Virus record (IMG/VR): IMGVR_UViG_2531839128_000009
Reading direction: 5' to 3' (one strand)
Source of the DNA: a virus
Lineage: Duplodnaviria > Heunggongvirae > Uroviricota > Caudoviricetes
DNA length: 23,171 nt
Shown: positions 2,220 through 23,171 of the stretch, in pieces
Layout of the letters: each line of letters opens with the position of its first letter
Position numbering within the stretch: the stretch's first letter is position 1
Program-made: the position numbers and the translations under genes
The notes under the pieces: generated by a model
Databases searched by the model: none
The model's input: the letters and a program-made list of their open reading frames with translations, nothing else
What the model was told of the DNA's origin: nothing

Positions 2220-3091
2220 GCAGCCCTCACAATGTAATTAAATGAAATATTACGTGGGCGTGTCTCTGCTGCACCGACAATACTGGTACTCAACCCCGTT
2301 GCCGTTCGTTTGTTATTTTTATTTCCTTCAATCAAACAGTTGTAATCATCATTACCAATTAACGAATTGGTGGCATCAATACTGTCCGGGGACAAGGCAT
2401 TAGTTGTGGAACTTAAAGTCAGCATCTCGTCTGAACTTGGAAGATTTTTTAATGGTGTTTCATTGCGTGAAATACCCGCGTAAAAAAAGGACTCATGCCT
2501 GTGAGCTTCAAAAGAGTCATCCTGAAGACTTAGCAAGGCTCGCCCCGCATCCACTCCACGTCCATCATCCCAGCCACGAATAAATTCACCGCGTAAATCA
2601 GGCAATTTATTGGTCGGGTAAGCCTTTGCCAGTTCCGGGTATTCTTCAGCAGAAAAAGCCGCACCATTGCATTTCAGCCAGCCTGTTGGCGGAGTGGCTG
2701 AAGGCCACGGAACAGGGACCCCAACCGGTAATGCAGAGCCTTCTCCCAAACCAAGGTTTTCGAGAGCCGTTTTCACCGCGCCATCCGATTTGATATCACC
2801 AAACGGATTCTTGCGGCTCAGGTATTCAACAGCAAACCCCGATCCCAGCAATTCAACAAAACCGGGCAGATCACCATTATCAAGCACATCCCGTTGCGTT
2901 TTGTCACTTACAAACTGGGCCAGAGCTGCAGCAATAAAGCTGGCCTGCCGAATAACCTTATTGACTTGCGCACTGGATGCTTTCCCTGCTGTAAATCCGG
3001 ATAAAAGCGCAGGCAACGCTTCCCATTCCTCCTGCGACATAACATTGGCATTCCGATCAGTTGCAAACGCTTTAAAGTCATTTTTCGCCAT
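2216..3091 (-). CDS. tail fiber protein (constant N-terminal part plus currently expressed variable C-terminal part)
   Basis: Translation MAKNDFKAF…NLGLGEG…[10 protein letters not shown]…[17 protein letters not shown]…[13 protein letters not shown], a collar-type fiber C-terminus as I recall it from P2 H / Mu S-like fibers. Start ATG 3089-3091 overlaps the upstream stop (TGATG); an alternative ATG lies at 3107-3109. The right crossover site lies inside the gene at codons about 118-125. Confidence 0.85.
2741..2766. other. right crossover site of the invertible segment (26 bp), inside the tail fiber gene
   Basis: TTCTCCCAAACCAAGGTTTTCGAGAG: half-sites flanking a central AA, with the inner 14 nt identical to the left site in inverted orientation. 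Confidence 0.75.
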
Positions 3092-3771
3092 CAGAGTAAT
3101 ACTCCCCATGCCCCTACATCAAAACCACTGATGAATTCGTTATCCATATCAAAACCAAAAAATTTTGAACCTTCCGATGGAGTTTCCACCGAAGGTGTTT
3201 CAATGCCACCCGCCCAAACCCCGGCGGCTTTTACTGTGAGATATCCCTGTTTAATTGCAGCAATTAACTCACGCGATACATCTGAAATATCAGTATCAGG
3301 AAAGAGCCAGACCGATATCGTCATGTCCTGGTTATCGACTATCTGCATTCGCAGTCCGGATCCTGCTGTCGCCGCGTCAAGAATTGCTGGAAGCGAATCA
3401 TTCCGTCCGTCCCAGTTATTAATCGCAATCTTCGCTTTAAGGATGACACGATAAGTTTCATCGCTGAGGTACATGTATCCGGAATCAGGATCGTATGGCC
3501 CCTGCCATACACCATGATCATATCCAAGCCCGTCGGTATCCCAGCTGAAATAGACACCTGAGATAGGCTGGCTGACAACACGGCTACGTCCGATCCACAA
3601 TCCAAGAATGTCAAGTTGCACACCAACCGCAGAGTCAATATCAAATGCAGTAATCAGCCCTCTGGTGGCAGCCGCAACATCAATAAGCGGCCGGGTCATC
3701 AGATCAACATGTGCAAGAAATTTAGGTTTGGTGGCGTGGTAGTTCGTGATCAGTTCGGTGTATTTGCTCAT
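3091..3771 (-). CDS. baseplate / tail protein (gpI- or Mu gp48-like by position)
   Basis: 226-aa ORF immediately upstream of the tail fiber gene, overlapping neighbours on both sides. Assignment is from synteny only. Confidence 0.65.
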
Positions 3772-4967
3772 GACTCCACCGTTATAACGATATTTTCCGG
3801 TGTACAGGACGCAGATTCGTTGTATCTGATATCAATGTTTGATGACGACAAAGCCCCCGGGGATTTCCCAATCGTCAGTTCCTGAATATCGTAATAGCGT
3901 GCATTCCCGCCACTCACCACGCCAAGATTCGCCGGTGAGTAAATGCGACTTAAAAGGACCGAATCACCAATCATCAGACTATTGATATAGTCGGAAATAG
4001 CCTGCTGGATCTGCTGCCCTATCTGTGAGGTATAACCCGTAAAAACTTTTAATTTAATCCGGGCATAAACAGGTACATCACTGGAACGCGAGAATTTGAT
4101 TACATGGGGATTGCCGTATTTATCCGGAACCGTAACGGATGTTCTACCGTGAGTGGCTGTCCCCTGGCCTTTATTCCCTCTAATAGCCTGAGCAATATCC
4201 GTCACATCACCGCCATCCACAATTACAGCAACAGAGTGTGGCGGTAACCCGTTACCGTCCTCCGAACCAGTATCGTTTTCATAGAGTTTGTGGCGGGTTA
4301 CACCGGTAACATTAGAAACAGCACCATCCAGTGCTTCAAATGGGGTTATTGATGGCAACGCAACACTTTGCGACTGGCGGATACGTAACTCAGCATCAGT
4401 TTCTGCCGGAGAGCCAACAGTAGCCGCAGCAGGATTAGTTACCGAAACCCAGCCACGGGTTGGCGTATTAATTTCAGTGATAGTTCCAGCCAGCGCCGCC
4501 ACTGCACCACTGACGGAACATGTTGCGGTCGCCATCACTGTACCATCCACGCCGACCACCACTGAAGCAGGCAAACGCCATATCACATTATTACTGTCTT
4601 TCACGCTGCCATTAATGATGGTTGTTCCGGCAGTTCCTGTAAGAAGCAAATCAACCGTAGAGTTCGTCGCGCCTTTACGTGAAATACCATTTATTTTCAC
4701 GTTACTGGTCAGTGCAGCCCCATAGCCGGTTGCCGGTGAAAAACAGTTGTAGACAGTTATCGCCATATTATTGGCATCATGAATCGCCAGCGCCGTCAGA
4801 GCCACCATCTGGCCGTCTTTGCTGTCCGGTTCGAGGTAGGCATCACTGCCATAAATCTGCTGAAAATAGCTAATCAGGGTGCTGAGTATCGTCTGATAAT
4901 CAGGCGCACTGATCCCCTCCGCGGTTACCTTTGCAGATAAACCGAGAGAATCAAGGTTCAGAGCCAT
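3768..4967 (-). CDS. baseplate J-like protein (baseplate wedge)
   Basis: 399-aa ORF with size and position of gpJ / Mu gp47-type proteins. Start overlaps the upstream gene. Confidence 0.75.
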   Translation of the reverse strand: MALNLDSLGLSAKVTAEGISAPDYQTILSTLISYFQQIYGSDAYLEPDSKDGQMVALTALAIHDANNMAITVYNCFSPATGYGAALTSNVKINGISRKGATNSTVDLLLTGTAGTTIINGSVKDSNNVIWRLPASVVVGVDGTVMATATCSVSGAVAALAGTITEINTPTRGWVSVTNPAAATVGSPAETDAELRIRQSQSVALPSITPFEALDGAVSNVTGVTRHKLYENDTGSEDGNGLPPHSVAVIVDGGDVTDIAQAIRGNKGQGTATHGRTSVTVPDKYGNPHVIKFSRSSDVPVYARIKLKVFTGYTSQIGQQIQQAISDYINSLMIGDSVLLSRIYSPANLGVVSGGNARYYDIQELTIGKSPGALSSSNIDIRYNESASCTPENIVITVES

Positions 4968-5320: not shown

Positions 5321-6072
5321 TAGTTTACCCCATCGGTATTGCTTCCACCGCGCTGAACACCGCCATGAGTGTGCGTATCATCGATTGGCTTGCCGTTAGC
5401 CTTAACGCTCCCCAAGAACTCAACAGCACCAGTGATTTTTGAAGCCACACCAGAAACAACAGACCCCACCATGCCCCCCATCCAGGTTAACAGGCCATGA
5501 ATGGTTACTTTCTCAGAAAAATCAGCCAGAGGGGCAACCACATCAAGACCACCCGGGGCGACAATTTTAATTTTCCGGGTATCAGGATTAAGCTCAAAAT
5601 AGGTGCTGCCGTCGTCACTACGCAACTGTGTGGCACTGATATTAATACCGCTAATCTTCCTCGCCTGCGACTGGGGACCGGCTATACAAAACGCATCCGA
5701 TAAATCATGCATTCTGTCATCGACCGGCTCCTGTATCCCACCGCTCTGCCACCAGAAATCAATACAACGATCGGCAAAAACGACAAGACACTCATCCCCG
5801 GCTTTAACCGGAAAAGTCAACGTACAGCCTCCGCCGCGCGGAAATACCACTGGCACATCCACCAGCAACGGGTAATTTTTGGTAATGCGGTTACCGTCGT
5901 TATCCTTTTCAACCGAACGGATAGCTGGCTGTACAACCGCCGTCACCGCGTCGGGATCGAATGACTGAACAATGCCAGGCAAGGCGACACGGATCTGGTT
6001 CTTTGTTGTTTCCCGTTCAGATTTGAATGTTTCGGCAAGGTCGCCGCTGCGGGTCTGGTCAGATACTGCCAT
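5320..6072 (-). CDS. baseplate spike / gpV-like protein
   Basis: 250-aa ORF with a GGAG SD 8 nt upstream of ATG 6070-6072. Position and size fit a baseplate assembly V / central spike protein. Confidence 0.7.
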   Translation of the reverse strand: MAVSDQTRSGDLAETFKSERETTKNQIRVALPGIVQSFDPDAVTAVVQPAIRSVEKDNDGNRITKNYPLLVDVPVVFPRGGGCTLTFPVKAGDECLVVFADRCIDFWWQSGGIQEPVDDRMHDLSDAFCIAGPQSQARKISGINISATQLRSDDGSTYFELNPDTRKIKIVAPGGLDVVAPLADFSEKVTIHGLLTWMGGMVGSVVSGVASKITGAVEFLGSVKANGKPIDDTHTHGGVQRGGSNTDGVN

Positions 6073-18518: not shown

Positions 18519-19836
18519 TCTCGATGTCCTCGTCGGTAATGGATGCCCCGATGCCGGTTACGTCAGAATTTTCTCGCAAATCAGTCATAGCGGCTTTCAG
18601 TGTCATCAGACCATCACCCAGCGCTGTACTGATTGCGTTGGTAGTGTTTAACGCCACCGTTGAGCGATCGACATCAGACATTTGCCAGAGCGGGTTAAAC
18701 TCAAACGTGAAATCGTCCGGTAGCGGCTTGCCAAGTTCCGAACGATGCATGATGTCCAGTATCCGCCGCACCGGAAGACGTAAACGTCTCTCCTGCAGCG
18801 AGCTTACCCGATCGTAATAGTTGGCAAGGTCTGCATCGCCGGTAGAAAATCCTTTCGGGGACTGTCCGAACAACCGCACCAGTGGGATACCAACAGCGCC
18901 ACTAATCTGTTCTGCAAACTGCGAAAGGATGTCATCCAGACCACTGAAGCTGTACTGATGGGTTTCAAACTTATCCCGCGAGTCCATGAGCGTCATGCCT
19001 TCATTGCTCTGGAACTGTCGAATCAGGTCGATATTCTTCAGCAACGCTTCATACGCAGGACCACCAAGTGCGATAAGCTCGCGTAGCTTCTCCACGCTGT
19101 AGGTGCGCAGATGCGCCTTGTAGACCAGCTGCGCCGCGCCGACAGTAGCGCTGTCGAACGCGGTAAGACGATCCCAGATACGCTCTACAACCGACATTCC
19201 CCATTCGTTCTCGGTCATCTTCTGCTGGAATGGCAGCGTGACGCCATCAAAGCGAATCAGACGACTGTGATGAATGCGCCAGGCAGGAATTCCCGTTGCT
19301 GTGGTCACCACATCGTAAAACTCAGGTTTACCCAGGTCCGGCCCCATATCTTTAATGCGGCGGGTCAGCACTGGGTTAATCATCCAGCGGTCGAGCGGGA
19401 GAATCCCCTTAAACTTGCCTTCTCCAATGGTTTCGAGCCGCAGCGGGGTCATTGGTGCCTGCCCCTCAATCATGATGAAACCCACCGCGCCGCCATAGAG
19501 GCGCGACCATTTCAGCACGTCATTCAGCGCATCCCAGATTTGCAACTCATCCAGTTGTGATTCGAGAATGCCGCGATCTTTTGCATCAATTTCCGAAGTG
19601 ATGCGAATGCCTTTGCGGGTCATATCATCCGGGATAGCATCGACCGCTTCGCCGATGATCCAGGACGAACGATAGGACCATTCCACCAGCATGCGGTTAC
19701 GACTGGTGAAATTAGCCCGGTAGGTGGATGCTGAGTGCTGGTTAGGTGTCTGCATCCCTACGCGGGCAATAAAATTCTCATAACCATCAGCTGTGGCCTG
19801 CGCAGTTCGCCGCAGGGCTTGTTTGTTTCGTGCCAT
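18370..19836 (-). CDS. portal protein
   Basis: 488-aa ORF directly after the large terminase (ATGA overlap), with the acidic C-terminal tail common in portals. Confidence 0.85.
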   Translation of the reverse strand: MARNKQALRRTAQATADGYENFIARVGMQTPNQHSASTYRANFTSRNRMLVEWSYRSSWIIGEAVDAIPDDMTRKGIRITSEIDAKDRGILESQLDELQIWDALNDVLKWSRLYGGAVGFIMIEGQAPMTPLRLETIGEGKFKGILPLDRWMINPVLTRRIKDMGPDLGKPEFYDVVTTATGIPAWRIHHSRLIRFDGVTLPFQQKMTENEWGMSVVERIWDRLTAFDSATVGAAQLVYKAHLRTYSVEKLRELIALGGPAYEALLKNIDLIRQFQSNEGMTLMDSRDKFETHQYSFSGLDDILSQFAEQISGAVGIPLVRLFGQSPKGFSTGDADLANYYDRVSSLQERRLRLPVRRILDIMHRSELGKPLPDDFTFEFNPLWQMSDVDRSTVALNTTNAISTALGDGLMTLKAAMTDLRENSDVTGIGASITDEDIENAEDEAPPGIGEPDDEPQEPSGGNPVSNQPTQDSAGGRGHRKWSLRWFK

Positions 19837-21458
19837 CAGGCCTGTCTCCCTAGCAGCTCCCAGATGTTCAGGGCTGAATTCATTGGGGCATAGTTGATCA
19901 TCACCGAGTCGGCAAGGTTTGGCGACCGGGTTCCATCAGGCTGTTTATCAATAACGATTTTTCCCACACCATTAATGGAATAGGTCGGCTGCGAAAGCTC
20001 GATGATGAGTTTATCTTTGAGTGCCATGCTACTGCTGATTGAGATGATTTCGTCCGGGTTGTAGGCCATGCCCTCAACCACGGCACGGTAGGTGTTCTGG
20101 AAAAGTTTACGTAACCGCCACCAGCTCTGGGCTTTGGCGTTAGCGAAGAAGTCCTTGTTCAGACGTGCGGCTTGCCCGTTGTCCCCGCGAACAGCTTCAT
20201 CATCCGGATCAAATACCGCGCCACTACCTCGAAACGGTGTGGCGAGTATTGACGGTCGGCGCGCAGCGTTACGCAGTTCGTTGATAGCGCGTGCATCGCC
20301 GCGAACGCCAGCGCCCAGCCCGTCCTCATCAAAGCGAAACTCTTCGAGGTTGTCCTGTTCGCAAAAACCGAAGACCTTCTCGACGGACTGATAAATGTCG
20401 CTGCCCACACCAGACCATTCCCGCACATTTTCCAGGAGGAAGCCATGACGGGTGGAAAAGGCATTTTTGTCCCTGCCTTCGTCGGCGACATCCATCGCGC
20501 CAAGTCGTTTGCCTGTTGGCTGGATCCCCAGTTTGATATGCGCATCAACGGCAGCCTGTACCCATTCGGATGGAATCAGGACGCCTTCCGCTGATGCGCT
20601 GTAGTTCAGATCAAGTTCCTGTGCCACCACCACCGGATTATCGATTTTCTCGCATTCCCTGCGATACCACTCTTCATCCTTGCGAGGATCATCCCGCCAG
20701 TGGAATGTGAATACCGGTATCTTCCCGCCATGACGCTTCTGAGCGAACGGGTTCGCCATGCCATTAACTGAACTCAGGTCAATACGGCAACGCGTCGTTT
20801 GTGACAACGCCGCATCAATCAGCAGAGGACGCTGAAGGAATGCAGCCTCATCAACCAGATAAAGCGTGGTACGGTCACCACGACCAATATTATCGCCAGC
20901 CTCGCCTTTGATAACGGCACCAGTTTCAGGAAACTCAACACGCATATATGGCGCGTGCTTCTTCTCGCTCCACGAACCGCGAAACTCTACAGGTAGTGTT
21001 TCCACGAACTTGCGCGCCTTCCAGAACAATGCTTTCGGGTCACCGGTGCTGTCGACGTATTCCTCTTTACGGGAGCCGAAACCGATAACCATTCCTTTGT
21101 TGAAGAGACAAAGCGAGCAGGCCAGTCCGATCGCGGTCCAACTGAGCCCCATTTCACGGGATTTTTCGGTAATACCATTCTCCCGATTACCCCAGCGTTC
21201 CATAATCCAGTGGATCCACTCCTCCTGCTTAGGGAAGAGTAAAAACGGAATGGTCACCGGCAGGCCATAATCAATATTACGCGGGTCCGTTGTCATGCCC
21301 CAGTCGATGATGAACTGAGCCGGATTGGTTCGGTAAAACTGCTTCAACACGGGCAATATTTCAGGATTCTGGCGAATGCGCTGTAGGCGTTCCATCCGCC
21401 ATTCAAAAACCATCTGGTAATCAGGATGTTTAAAATCGAAGGGGAATGGTAACGGCAT
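19836..21458 (-). CDS. terminase large subunit
   Basis: 540-aa ORF following the small terminase with an ATGA overlap. Size and position are typical of TerL. Confidence 0.88.
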
Positions 21459-21460
21459 AC

Positions 21461-22012
21461 TTAGCCCATCATTTTTCTATACGCCTCTGCAGCCTGCTCC
21501 GGCGTTAAGTTGGTAATTTCTGTTCTGACTGGTCCTCCATCAGCGCCAGTCACTTCATTTTTGACATTGTCTTTAAACGCCTGAACAGAAACATGACGCC
21601 CAAGCAACTCAAGATTTTTAACCTTATCAGGCCATTTGATTTTCTTCAGAAGTGCGGCGCTATCTGCGGATACCATCTCCACGACATCCATTCCTGATAG
21701 CGTTGTGCGCCATACCTTAGGCCAGTCTTTAATGGGTTTTAGCTCACCGTTTTGCAGGAGAATGTCAAGCACATCCATCTGGTCGATTTCAAGAAGGCGA
21801 TTAAGTACATATTCTGCATTAATACCAACAAGATCATTGCGTTGCGCTTTCAGTTCAGCGATTCTTAACTTGATGTCAGGTTTTGACATGTTTTCGGACG
21901 CAGTACGGTTGGCTGTCTTTGCGCTGTACCCCGCCCGAATAGCCGCTTGTGTGGCGTTTAAATCGATGAGGTACTCGCGACAGAACATTTCTTGTTTGTC
22001 GGTGAGTGCCAT
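21461..22012 (-). CDS. terminase small subunit
   Basis: 183-aa ORF; N-terminus [30 protein letters not shown] is the characteristic HTH start of one small-terminase family. First gene of the packaging/morphogenesis block. Confidence 0.88.
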
Positions 22013-22036
22013 GGCAAAGTCTCAATTGGATTGAAA

Positions 22037-22309
22037 ATGAGTGATTTATTACTAATTAAAAACTGGTTAATTGACCATCATACACTATCAATTTTCTTTG
22101 GTTTTTTATCGGCTGGGTTATGGATCAAATCAGCAACAGCCAAAGTCAAAACAGGTAGAAGCACCGTTGTAGCAATTACATTTGATGATCCCCAAAAAAA
22201 TGTAGATCTTCACGAATTTTTCTTAACTGCGCGGTTACAGTCTAAATATAACTCATATGCAGCTTTCGCTGCTGCTGCAACTGTGATTTTGCAAATGGCT
22301 GGCTATTAG
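22037..22309 (+). CDS. possible small membrane protein on the opposite strand (hypothetical)
   Basis: 90-aa frame from ATG 22037 (MSDLLLIKNWLIDHHTLSIFFGFLSAGLWI…) with one clear hydrophobic helix, in an AT-rich region. Only a weak SD. A plus-strand terminator lies about 285 nt downstream. Confidence 0.3.
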   Translation: MSDLLLIKNWLIDHHTLSIFFGFLSAGLWIKSATAKVKTGRSTVVAITFDDPQKNVDLHEFFLTARLQSKYNSYAAFAAAATVILQMAGY

Positions 22310-22398
22310 AAAGCCTTAACCACGATATTATTTACCTTTATCAATATCAGTTAACGGCTCAAAGTGTAATGGTTCCACATTCTCCTAATGGAGTTATT

Positions 22399-22524
22399 CT
22401 ACTCGCCCATCTCGGTAGCCGGCTGCATAAAGCCATTAACCAGCTCACGCTGACGTCGTGACATCTTACCCGTAAAGGTTTCGCCTGTTTGGGTGGTTAA
22501 CATGATTTGGTAGATGTCGGACAT
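22399..22524 (-). CDS. possible 41-aa small protein (hypothetical)
   Basis: Hand translation gives MSDIYQIMLTTQTGETFTGKMSRRQRELVNGFMQPATEMGE ending at TAG. AAAGAGG SD 6 nt upstream of ATG 22522-22524. Below the size cut-off of the supplied ORF track. Confidence 0.35.
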   Translation of the reverse strand: MSDIYQIMLTTQTGETFTGKMSRRQRELVNGFMQPATEMGE

Positions 22525-22592
22525 TGAGAACCTCTTTATCCGCTTGTTGGGATATCAGTTAAGTTATCCCGTGTAGGGTATAAGCCATTATC

Positions 22593-22620
22593 AAAGCCAC
22601 TCGGCATGGAGTGGCTTTTG
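22593..22620 (+). terminator. rho-independent terminator, plus strand
   Basis: AAAGCCACTC-GGCATG-GAGTGGCTTT hairpin (8 to 10 bp stem) followed by TTTTG on the plus strand. Confidence 0.55.
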
Positions 22621-22630
22621 TAATAGCAAT

Positions 22631-22656
22631 AAAAAAACCGTCCGGAGGCGGCTTGT
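22631..22656 (-). terminator. probable rho-independent terminator of the peptidase-like gene
   Basis: Short GC hairpin (CCGCC…GGACGG with one mismatch) followed on the minus strand by seven T, immediately after stop codon 22658-22660. Confidence 0.5.
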
Positions 22657-22657
22657 G

Positions 22658-23171
22658 TTAAATCCCCAAGAGAGGCTTAAAGTCATTTAGCTTCTCTGCT
22701 TTAATAACAAATCCGAGATTCATTGTAATTTCAGAACGCACAACTGGTGTAGCGACTGTTGGTACGTCAATAATTTCAATATTCCCGCTAACATTCGTTA
22801 CTGGCCCTGCATACAACAACCCAAGGAAAATTAATCTCTCCCCCATAGCAATACCATCATTAGTAGCATATGAGCCTTGGTTCATTATATAAACGGGAGA
22901 ACCGCTAGAACCACCGAAACAAGCCATATCAATGAGGAATTCAGGCTTACCCTTCCAGTTTTCCATAGGTGATGATGCTGTGATGCCTTTCCTGGTAACA
23001 GGCCTATTGTTTACAGAATCCCATAATCCATTTGGATATCCTGTCATGTAAACATCTTCGACAGGAGTAATGTAATTGTTACCACGCATCTGACGATCTG
23101 TGAAAAAGAAGAGTTCTGGGCTAATGCCACTTTTCTCCATCTCATTCAGCAATCCAGCGATAGGCAATATG
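22658..23171 (-). CDS. trypsin-like serine peptidase domain protein, C-terminal part (5' end beyond window)
   Basis: Frame is open to the last base of the window. Contains CFGGSSGSPVY, matching the GxSGxP catalytic-serine motif of chymotrypsin-fold peptidases; the His/Asp part would be upstream and outside the window. AT-rich by eye relative to the phage structural genes. Confidence 0.7.
   Translation of the reverse strand, partial: ILPIAGLLNEMEKSGISPELFFFTDRQMRGNNYITPVEDVYMTGYPNGLWDSVNNRPVTRKGITASSPMENWKGKPEFLIDMACFGGSSGSPVYIMNQGSYATNDGIAMGERLIFLGLLYAGPVTNVSGNIEIIDVPTVATPVVRSEITMNLGFVIKAEKLNDFKPLLGI

Follow-up and report, generated by a model that had tools for sequence, protein, structure and literature searches.

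The question raised by positions 22013-22657 of the window (the whole stretch of 23,171 nucleotides that was analysed) is why so short an interval between a peptidase-like gene and terS, within a late operon on the minus strand, holds small ORFs and hairpins on both strands. The region has a G+C content of 40.6%, compared with 50.8% for the whole window, and lies among the lowest 1% of 645-bp windows, which bears out the AT-richness reported in the initial annotation; the ORFs, Shine-Dalgarno sequence and hairpins described there were all recovered where it had placed them. A consensus scan of the region returned 3 promoter-like sites (4.4 ± 2.1 in shuffles) and 3 terminator-like sites (1.4 ± 1.5 in shuffles), neither of which is an excess, so the significance of the promoter and terminator features depends on comparative evidence and not on the scan. 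The full explanation preferred here, with a probability of about 0.6, is that the 645 bp form a mosaic junction in a lambdoid-type E. coli prophage, at the point of its late operon where the accessory genes behind the lysis cassette give way to the DNA-packaging genes. Junctions of this type are ordinary, additional genes being carried by temperate phages in the interval that separates lysis from packaging genes. Functions were inferred for all parts of 22013-22657.

The packaging side of the junction begins at terS (21461-22012, minus strand), which encodes the small terminase subunit (Terminase_2, Pfam E 2.8e-39). A divergent spacer of 24 nt (22013-22036) runs from the terS start codon (22012, minus strand) to the start codon of a 90-aa ORF (22037, plus strand) and forms the left edge of a cargo spot. 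Among relatives the terS-proximal spot was either empty or occupied by genes of 90 aa, 174 aa or 81 + 301 aa, and the distance from that one terS start codon to the start of each of these three unrelated reverse cargos is 21-27 nt. The 90-aa gene and the 5' part of terS upstream of it are inherited together: Klebsiella aerogenes prophages carry this gene with a 5' fragment of terS, besides a complete terS of their own, and a decayed terS trace lies upstream of a 68%-identical homologue. The spot is a place to seek new prophage exclusion or defence genes.

The 90-aa ORF (22037-22309, plus strand, 36.3% GC) was matched over its full length to phrog_14357 (PHROG E 2.9e-62, profile positions 1-90 of 90). 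A dN/dS of 0.08, calculated against the 68%-identical homologue of the same length, showed it to be a real gene under strong purifying selection. The 90-aa protein belongs to an unnamed family of 83-92-aa proteins, and the 41-aa ORF discussed below has 89 homologues. The structural model of the 90-aa protein (pLDDT 80) has helices at residues 2-34 and 58-88, with hydrophobic segments at 16-33 and 73-90, and is predicted to be a two-helix membrane hairpin. Fourteen members of the family were searched with no Pfam or PADLOC family assigned, and a Foldseek search of the model against the PDB gave no match with E<1, so the function of the protein is read from its context. In every context found the gene is opposite to its neighbours, and elsewhere it stands beside DUF2441, TonB_C or baseplate genes with no constant partner. 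On this basis the gene would be expressed from the prophage and its product would work at the inner membrane, e.g. in excluding superinfecting phages. No convincing sigma-70-like promoter was located within 200 nt upstream by the consensus scan or by a separate scan. A minus-strand promoter-like site at 22354-22327 was dropped as it fell within chance expectation. Identity as a class II holin was also rejected. The pair of hydrophobic helices would fit, but such holins have a charged C-terminal tail and are encoded in the lysis cassette, and here the tail (…ILQMAGY) carries no charge, the gene lies outside the lysis genes and on the other strand, and no holin Pfam match was obtained.

The morons of lambdoid phages, among them lambda bor and HK97 gene 15, are additional genes inserted in an operon. 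The 90-aa gene resembles them in that some related, syntenic prophages have it at this position and others lack it, in having a base composition unlike that of the backbone (36.3% vs 50.8% GC), in pointing against the late operon, and in encoding a small membrane protein, as do several exclusion morons. It differs in that a promoter of its own was not found, in that a terminator, if any, would be borrowed from the junction element 284 nt downstream, and in that its product has no sequence or fold relationship to characterised moron products. The 83-92-aa two-helix membrane family is a conserved one. Transcription against the late operon, which the initial annotation had deduced from a plus-strand hairpin, is supported indirectly by the purifying selection on this gene and by the association of T-tract hairpin variants with reverse-strand ORFs described below. 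A transcript of the 90-aa gene would run antisense across the dead phrog_6581 gene and would stop at hairpin 1 of the junction element or at the complement of the minus-strand terminator.

The dead gene is represented by the 41-aa ORF (22399-22524, minus strand), which has AAAGAGG 6 nt upstream of its ATG and is separated from the 90-aa gene by a spacer of 33.7% GC (22310-22398). The ORF was matched to phrog_6581 (PHROG E 2.5e-16), but the match covers no more than positions 1-41 of the 66-position profile; intact members of the family are 57-72 aa and most of the homologues are 62-72 aa. In the window copy codon 42 has changed from TGG to TAG. The decayed 3' part of the gene was traced at 22328-22398 (minus strand), in a frame that differs from that of the 41-aa ORF (ENVEPLHFEPLTDIDKGK*), by tblastn with an intact Cronobacter homologue, by three-frame translation and by a 1-nt gap in the DNA alignment. 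Judged on its sequence, the 41-aa ORF is a dead copy of a small late gene, ended by the codon-42 stop and a frameshift. Insertion of the cargo was rejected as the cause of truncation because a remnant of the original 3' end persists to 22328. In a common E. coli allele of the small gene this TAG is present as well but the frame beyond it is intact, and the 41-aa product might therefore still be used. The ORF has a G+C content of 50.8%, like the phage backbone, and the peptide is hydrophilic (mean hydropathy -0.61). A model of the intact phrog_6581 protein gave a five-strand small beta-barrel, predicted to be Sm/Hfq-like, whose strands 4 and 5 would be missing from the 41-aa product. The intact protein could be a partner of the RNA of the junction element.

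On the accessory side the region is bounded by the 3' part of a trypsin-fold peptidase gene (22658-23171, minus strand, 41.1% GC), which is cut by the end of the window. It matched PADLOC PDC-S45 (E 1.6e-67), a candidate defence family, and phrog_7688 (E 9.5e-70), and gave a weak match to Trypsin_2. This is an accessory gene, and in an otherwise matching prophage of E. coli HZ13 a Rha-family gene stands in its place. An intrinsic terminator was identified by the consensus scan and by folding at 22631-22654 (minus strand), 3 nt past the peptidase stop codon. It consists of a G+C-rich stem with 5 G-C pairs and one bulge (22638-22654), directly followed by 7 U (22637-22631), and is a credible terminator closing the PDC-S45-like peptidase gene. 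The complementary hairpin also received a weakly terminator-like score on the plus strand in the consensus scan. Related phages have other G+C-rich hairpins at this position, every one with a T5-7 run and next ATTGCC after it; such differing units of hairpin and T-run were found in 34 of 117 copies.

The peptidase-gene terminator would stop RNA polymerase that is unmodified by Q, keeping it from the terminase genes in a lysogen. Terminators within lambdoid late operons are recognised, and blocking transcription that proceeds without antitermination is one suggestion for their role (PMC8022706). The intrinsic terminators of P22-like late operons are alike in having a G+C-rich hairpin and U-run within a Q-antiterminated operon, with a suggested role of halting unmodified polymerase (PMC8022706); they differ in that the terminator described here is part of an accessory gene insertion, the gene and its terminator being exchanged as one.

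Between this terminator and the phrog_6581 gene lies an unannotated conserved element of ~95 nt (22531-22627, minus strand), composed of two hairpins and a 3' end that is a Shine-Dalgarno sequence. Hairpin 1 (22584-22627, minus strand) has a 7-bp lower stem, then an invariant 2x2 internal loop (22591-22592 and 22619-22620) that reads CA/GA on the late strand, and above it a 10-bp upper stem (22593-22618) capped by a 6-nt loop. The hairpin that had been described as a plus-strand terminator at 22593-22620 is the upper part of this longer one; read on the plus strand, 22593-22618 form the upper stem, in which AAAGCCACTC pairs with GAGTGGCTTT, and TTTTGTAAT comes next. Hairpin 2 (22549-22570, minus strand) pairs GGGAUA with UAUCCC across a 10-nt loop and is joined to hairpin 1 by CUUAUACCCUACAC. 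In diverged variants the stem GGAUA/UAUCC is retained and the loop of hairpin 2 is changed. The 3' end of the element, AACAAGCGGAUAAAGAGG (22531-22548, minus strand), carries the Shine-Dalgarno sequence of the next late gene, and GGATAAA(G/C)G(A)G is retained ahead of four different partners: DUF2560, phrog_6581, terS or the end of a reverse ORF. The order on the late strand is thus a 17-bp hairpin with an invariant CA/GA loop, a second hairpin and GGAUAAAGAGG as a ribosome-binding site. The late-strand fold of 22515-22660 had a z-score of -5.4 against shuffles, compared with -2.7 for the plus strand. A short ORF within the element (22536-22607) was rejected as its start codon falls in the variable hairpin loop, and readings of the invariant core as an IHF site or a sigma-70 promoter were rejected by eye as poor matches.

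The element is present, unannotated, in 2314 of 5426 complete E. coli genomes (~43%), with ~3040 E. coli copies, and in 106 phage records. In Sf6, HK97, HK022, epsilon34, mEp460, Stx2 phage 1717, phiKp_30 and Kati its position and orientation are alike, and throughout the E. coli genomes and phages the element was always found at the junction of lysis-accessory and packaging genes. The window holds one copy only (103 bits). The element was absent from E. coli K-12 DLP12 between the lysis genes and nohD. No Rfam family reached its gathering score in the whole window, and at E<=1 the only hit in the region was P9, with 18 bits against a threshold of 43. The core sequence, searched on both strands as DNA and as RNA, was found in no paper in a full-text literature search, and the element was not found in the literature on boundary sequences, late-operon processing or prophage sRNAs.

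Conservation of the structure was assessed in an alignment of 33 unique copies, in which 98.2% of cells were paired, compared with 40-55% when the partners were slid. Of the 17 pairs of hairpin 1, 7 have compensatory changes, and 97.5% of cells in this hairpin were paired. The covariation score was 0.295 vs 0.178 in shuffles and was reached by 0 of 500 shuffles, a test that overstates the significance, since the copies are related and were gathered by a pattern that fixes part of hairpin 2. Hairpin 2 was invariant in the 33 copies, which for the same reason is partly ascertainment. The strands were compared for hairpin 1: 97.5% of cells were paired on the late strand and 85.6% on the plus strand, G.U pairs numbered 74 and 7, respectively, and the late-strand fold was the more stable in 47 of 62 hairpin variants. 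For the hairpin class of the window copy the two strands were nearly equal (-24.6 vs -22.9 kcal/mol). The compensatory changes and G.U pairs favour the folding of hairpin 1 on the late (minus) strand.

These comparisons bear on two accounts of the element that differ from the preferred reading. In the initial annotation the 22593-22620 hairpin was a plus-strand terminator, and it could be mainly that, forming with the minus-strand terminator a convergent pair that insulates the reverse cargo gene from the peptidase gene, and owing its conservation to this function alone. The account, which is considered unlikely, draws on TTTTGTAAT following the upper stem on the plus strand and on a mean of -19.4 kcal/mol for class A/B hairpins on that strand. 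These are the T-tract classes, which include the window copy, and in an unbiased scan a reverse-strand ORF ended at the element in 36 of 72 T-tract-class copies compared with 2 of 39 copies without a T-tract (Fisher p 6e-7 for all copies, 0.009 for unique sequences). At 22593-22627, though, the plus strand reads as a 10-bp stem followed by UUUUGUAAU, with only four U in a row; the tract may alternatively be paired within the lower stem, and the consensus scan made no terminator call. Class C (HK97, HK022 and epsilon34; one third of copies) has neither T-tract nor reverse gene, and in it the hairpin is nonetheless kept through compensatory changes. G.U pairs are in excess on the late strand. 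Conservation extends to the internal loop, hairpin 2 and the Shine-Dalgarno part, none of which a terminator requires. The hairpin noted earlier does exist, but it is part of a widespread element whose structure suits the minus strand better; a secondary role of hairpin 1 as a plus-strand terminator is plausible. The element might also be a DNA linker with no RNA function, kept near-identical by homologous recombination that exchanges modules. One core does join many different left and right neighbours, and the points at which homology to related prophages breaks off (22582, 22625-22628 or 22651) lie within the element or on its border. Recombination alone would leave the compensatory changes at 7 pairs, the invariant loop between co-varying stems and the one-strand excess of G.U pairs unexplained. 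Copies of hairpin 1 alone or hairpin 2 alone are present at other junctions, and this account is judged rather improbable.

Two further suggestions of the initial annotation concerned the region as a whole. A small toxin-like or antisense module, with either the 90-aa protein or the 41-aa peptide as a toxin under overlapping antisense transcription, would take advantage of the convergent arrangement, in which a plus-strand transcript is antisense to the 41-aa ORF, and the small size and hydrophobicity of the 90-aa protein would suit it. Type I toxins are known as hydrophobic peptides of under ~60 aa with a single helix; here the 90-aa protein has two, and the 41-aa peptide is a hydrophilic, decayed fragment of a longer beta-barrel protein. 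The 90-aa gene is solitary, and in its varied contexts it lacks the 41-aa partner. No promoter for an antisense transcript was returned by the scans and no match by Rfam, leaving an antisense RNA locus hypothetical and the module as a whole very improbable. The late promoter or its leader was likewise sought within the region, which is AT-rich and lies just upstream of terS. The leader part of that proposal stood, as 22531-22627 is conserved and ends in the ribosome-binding site of the next gene. The promoter part did not: the closest annotated relative has its Q antiterminator ~3.4 kb upstream on the same strand, past the lysis genes, which places the promoter several kb away, as in Sf6, and the promoter-like sites in the region do not exceed chance. 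That the late promoter is the explanation of the region is scarcely credible.

Under the preferred reading of a mosaic junction, the element would act as an RNA leader within the late transcript. Hairpin 1 would most likely be an RNase III-type processing or stability signal, to go by its shape, which in all classes is a hairpin of 7 bp, 2x2 loop and 10 bp and so resembles an RNase III site of ~20 bp with an internal loop. Such a signal would uncouple the upstream message from that of the packaging genes, and the rest of the leader would set up translation of whichever gene follows. RNase III processing hairpins of phage messages include the T7 R1.1-type sites, the lambda N-leader and sib. Hairpin 1 is like these in being intercistronic, in spanning about two helical turns with a small conserved internal loop, and in lying after upstream stop codons and before the next cistron; it differs in that its loop is a symmetric 2x2 and in having no sequence similarity to known sites, and cleavage here is presumptive. 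It is tentatively proposed, as a possibility short of an even chance by a good distance, that the ~95-nt element, with both hairpins and the shared ribosome-binding site, is a so far undescribed RNA motif that acts in cis in lambdoid phages. It would be read by a nuclease or RNA-binding protein that sets the amount or stability of the packaging message apart from that of the lysis message, it would serve as a site of cassette exchange as well, and the phrog_6581 protein could be its partner. The element has compensatory base-pair changes, yet it is unannotated, matches no Rfam family and is not mentioned in the literature searched; should it prove to be a signal for processing or regulation, it would be a new control point in the best-studied phage late operons.

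The element would also act as a crossover point for module exchange, because the same sequence is present at the junction in many phages, and breakpoints were observed at 22582 and at 22625-22628. As a processing or regulatory signal it would then also mark the sites at which accessory cassettes are swapped. The boundary (linker) sequences of HK620/Sf6 type are comparable in being short conserved sequences at a module boundary where phage homology starts or stops, and differ from the junction element in that the latter is longer and has covarying RNA structure. The Sf6 record annotates boundary features elsewhere, e.g. bsq7, and not the junction element.

Prophage sRNAs of pathogenic E. coli (Pas, AgvB, AsxR, STnc100, Esr41) are likewise unannotated conserved noncoding sequences in lambdoid prophages. 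They differ in lying near Q and holin genes or in other islands, those with Rfam models had no match here, and the junction element has no promoter of its own. Identity with the Pas sRNAs was rejected as these map near Q and holin genes and not at this junction, and the junction element is not a known sRNA. Among the lone hairpins at other junctions, hairpin 2 was present by itself in locus L024.

The late operon of the prophage is encoded on the minus strand, and the region at 22013-22657 lies between the gene for a trypsin-fold peptidase (22658 to the window end, minus strand) and terS (21461-22012, minus strand; Terminase_2, E 2.8e-39), which is followed by terL (19836-21458, minus strand). 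It contains a non-coding gap (22658-22525), a 41-aa ORF (22399-22524, minus strand) and a 90-aa ORF (22037-22309, plus strand). The initial annotation had described the region as AT-rich, and its GC content was indeed 40.6% against 50.8% for the window, which ranks it among the lowest 1% of windows of 645 bp. This low figure was due to the 90-aa ORF (36.3%) and the spacer 3' of it (33.7%); the 41-aa ORF (50.8%) resembled the backbone. The two hairpins (22593-22620 and 22631-22656) and the AAAGAGG ribosome-binding site were found where they had been annotated. Terminator and promoter consensus scans of the region alone gave counts not above chance, and weight was therefore put on comparison with related sequences. 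The locus is of an ordinary kind, a moron (cargo gene) junction in a lambdoid late operon with uncharacterised members, and the only part worth pursuing is a conserved structured element of ~95 nt at 22531-22627.

Matches to this element at 80-95% identity were obtained in 106 phage records, among them HK97, HK022, Sf6, epsilon34, mEp460, Stx phages and Kati. Among 5426 complete E. coli genomes it was present in 2314, at 3040 places in total, and nearly all matches were without annotation. With one genome taken per species, and apart from a few stray metagenome bins, exact copies were found only in Escherichia and Shimwellia. In every annotated phage the element was located 3' of the lysis and accessory genes and 5' of the packaging genes, and its orientation with respect to the late operon did not vary. 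Neighbours were counted for 117 copies from a pattern scan of viral contigs, with left taken as downstream in the late direction. The element was adjoined by the start of a DUF2560 gene in 64 copies, by that of phrog_6581 in 8 and by terS itself in 2; a reverse-strand ORF adjoined it with its 3' end in 36 (strict classifier) to 38 (looser classifier). GGATAAA(G/C)G(A)G was retained throughout as a ribosome-binding site, whatever the left neighbour. Neither an Rfam family for the element nor literature containing its sequence was found, and the sRNAs Pas, AgvB, AsxR and STnc100 map elsewhere. Homology between the window and related prophages ended at 22582, 22625-22628 or 22651 on one side and inside terS on the other. 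As the former breaks fall within or at the edge of the element, it is judged from these alignments to be a mosaic crossover point. Phage Kati, mEp460 and Stx2 phage 1717 carried identical sequence on the same flank of the element (2337-2498, plus strand, in Kati, comparison locus L003; left flank in L006 and L008). In Kati this flank contributes the 3'-terminal part of a reverse-strand ORF of 53 aa (...EYGDDTAHDVSGLNTFIL*), which stops exactly at the element edge and would have the element as its 3' untranslated region.

The element contains hairpin 1 (22584-22627, minus strand) and hairpin 2 (22549-22570, minus strand). Folded on the late strand, hairpin 1 consists of two stems, a lower one of 6-8 bp and an upper one of 9-10 bp, which are separated by an invariably CA/GA 2x2 internal loop and capped by a loop of 3-6 nt; its sequence falls into several classes. 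The alignment comprised 33 unique copies, gathered by a pattern fixing part of hairpin 2. In it, paired cells amounted to 98.2% (40-55% with partners slid), compensatory changes occurred at seven pairs and the covariation score was 0.295 against 0.178 in shuffles, a value reached by 0/500 shuffles; the copies are related and the shuffle control ignores phylogeny. Helix 1 was paired in 97.5% on the late strand versus 85.6% on the plus strand, with 74 and 7 G·U pairs, respectively. The late-strand fold was the more stable in 47 of 62 hairpin variants. When unique hairpin sequences were grouped by class, the mean late minus plus energy was -10.2 kcal/mol for class C (HK97 type; late strand more stable in 9/9) and -3.1 kcal/mol for class A/B, to which the window belongs (18/25). 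A covariance model located one copy in the window, at 22535-22635 (minus strand, 103 bits), and single hairpins, either 1 or 2, at other Klebsiella and Enterobacter prophage junctions (3446-3526, 3777-3840, 4578-4635 and 5497-5586, minus strand, in comparison locus L024; 4910-4977 in L026-L028). As each hairpin occurs alone, the two appear to be separable modules. Lone hairpins were seen at several successive gene junctions, from lysis to terS, in Klebsiella aerogenes and Enterobacter prophages. On the late strand the element would serve as an RNA signal for processing or stability and as a translation leader; an RNase III reading is suggested by hairpin shape only.

The hairpin at 22593-22620 had been annotated as a plus-strand terminator, implying transcription opposing the late operon. 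The hairpin is present, but it is part of the widespread conserved element, and termination is only possible. In classes A and B, including the window, the upper stem is followed on the plus strand by TTT(T)GTAAT; class C copies have no T-tract. A reverse-strand ORF ended at the element in 36/72 class A/B copies versus 2/39 class C copies (Fisher p 6e-7 over all copies and 0.009 over unique sequences, the copies not being independent). Because the T-tract classes are associated with reverse-strand ORFs, opposing transcription is a reasonable inference, and hairpin 1 possibly also terminates plus-strand transcription, but this fails to explain the conservation of the hairpin in phages without a reverse gene. 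Proposals that the region is a late promoter, a toxin module or an antisense sRNA were not supported.

The gene of the 41-aa ORF is broken. The ORF matched positions 1-41 of the 66 in the phrog_6581 profile, and its homologues (n=89) are mostly of 62-72 aa, reading ...GEWLYFAPADVKRVQFTP... past residue 41. Codon 42 is TGG in intact phrog_6581 genes and TAG in the window, where a 1-nt indel after this codon causes a frameshift. The former C-terminal sequence (ENVEPLHFEPLTDIDKGK*) is still readable in another frame down to 22328, ending only 18 nt short of the 90-aa gene's stop codon. Truncation by cargo insertion was rejected because this remnant is still present; the gene is read as having decayed in place. 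Over the first 41 codons, comparisons among intact copies gave a dN/dS of 0.135 and comparisons of the window with intact copies gave 0.27-0.45, which, at small counts, agrees with relaxed constraint. Among E. coli alleles of the small late gene, a very common one (protein P0007; 4001-4230 in comparison loci L032-L035) shares with the window the TAG in place of TGG at codon 42 and is listed in 593 blocks of the collection index. Its downstream frame is intact and conserved (LYFAPGDAKRVQFTP), with a dN/dS of 0.13 against an Enterobacter copy; it could be a recent inactivation, be read through or be a tolerated short form.

The 90-aa ORF is a real, mobile cargo gene. Its protein matched phrog_14357 over the full length (E 2.9e-62); close relatives were very few among 5.8 billion proteins, and an exhaustive HMMER search gave a family of 83-92-aa proteins with identity down to 33% and the common pattern LSAxLW..SA, then QSK(Y/W)NSxAA..AA...Q. 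Against a 68%-identical homologue of equal length dN/dS was ~0.08 (synonymous changes 44/60.7 sites, non-synonymous 39/209 sites). In an AlphaFold model (pLDDT 80) two long helices, spanning residues 2-34 and 58-88, form a hairpin, and the hydrophobic segments are 16-33 and 73-90. No relative was found in Pfam, PADLOC or PDB. The gene was opposite in strand to its neighbours in all four contexts found: this window, the same block in 17 IMG/VR prophage contigs, the interval from lysis to terminase genes in Klebsiella aerogenes prophages, and positions next to DUF2441 and baseplate genes; no partner gene was constant across the four. The protein would be made from the prophage and act at the inner membrane, e.g. 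in superinfection exclusion, and its transcript would end at the hairpin pair.

Between the small late gene (phrog_6581) and terS, other E. coli prophages carried a reverse 174-aa gene (4257-4781 in L029-L031) or a reverse 81 + 301-aa pair (4305-5452 in L032-L035). All three cargos start 21-27 nt from the same terS start codon (22013-22036 in the window), have the terS 5' coding sequence as upstream region and gave no Pfam or PADLOC match at E<=0.01. From these arrangements the terS-proximal spot looks like a cargo hotspot in E. coli prophages. Together with the 90-aa gene, about 240 bp of terS 5' sequence moves into K. aerogenes prophages possessing a complete terS of their own. This joint movement hints at a putative promoter or 5' control region of the 90-aa gene embedded in the terS 5' end; no convincing sigma-70 motif was found in the upstream region scanned. 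A decayed, recognisable terS trace (TTTGAATAGATGAGG...) was seen upstream of the 68%-identical copy. The loci examined for this displaced terS sequence were 4738-5000 in L024/L025 and 2380-2500 in L021.

The minus-strand terminator annotated after the peptidase gene is credible. The stop codon is followed by a G+C-rich stem and seven U, and at the same position other phages have different G+C-rich hairpins with T5-7, joined to a common ATTGCC...; such units occurred in 34/117 element copies in an unbiased scan. Late operons under Q antitermination are known to contain terminators, for which one role proposed in the literature is to halt polymerase without antitermination (PMC8022706). Here the terminator would shield the packaging genes from unmodified polymerase. 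The peptidase gene (22658-23171, minus strand, cut by the window end) matched PADLOC PDC-S45, a candidate defence family (E 1.6e-67), and also phrog_7688. Its GC content is 41%, and it is equipped with a terminator of its own. The otherwise matching prophage of HZ13, an E. coli strain, has a Rha-family gene in its place.
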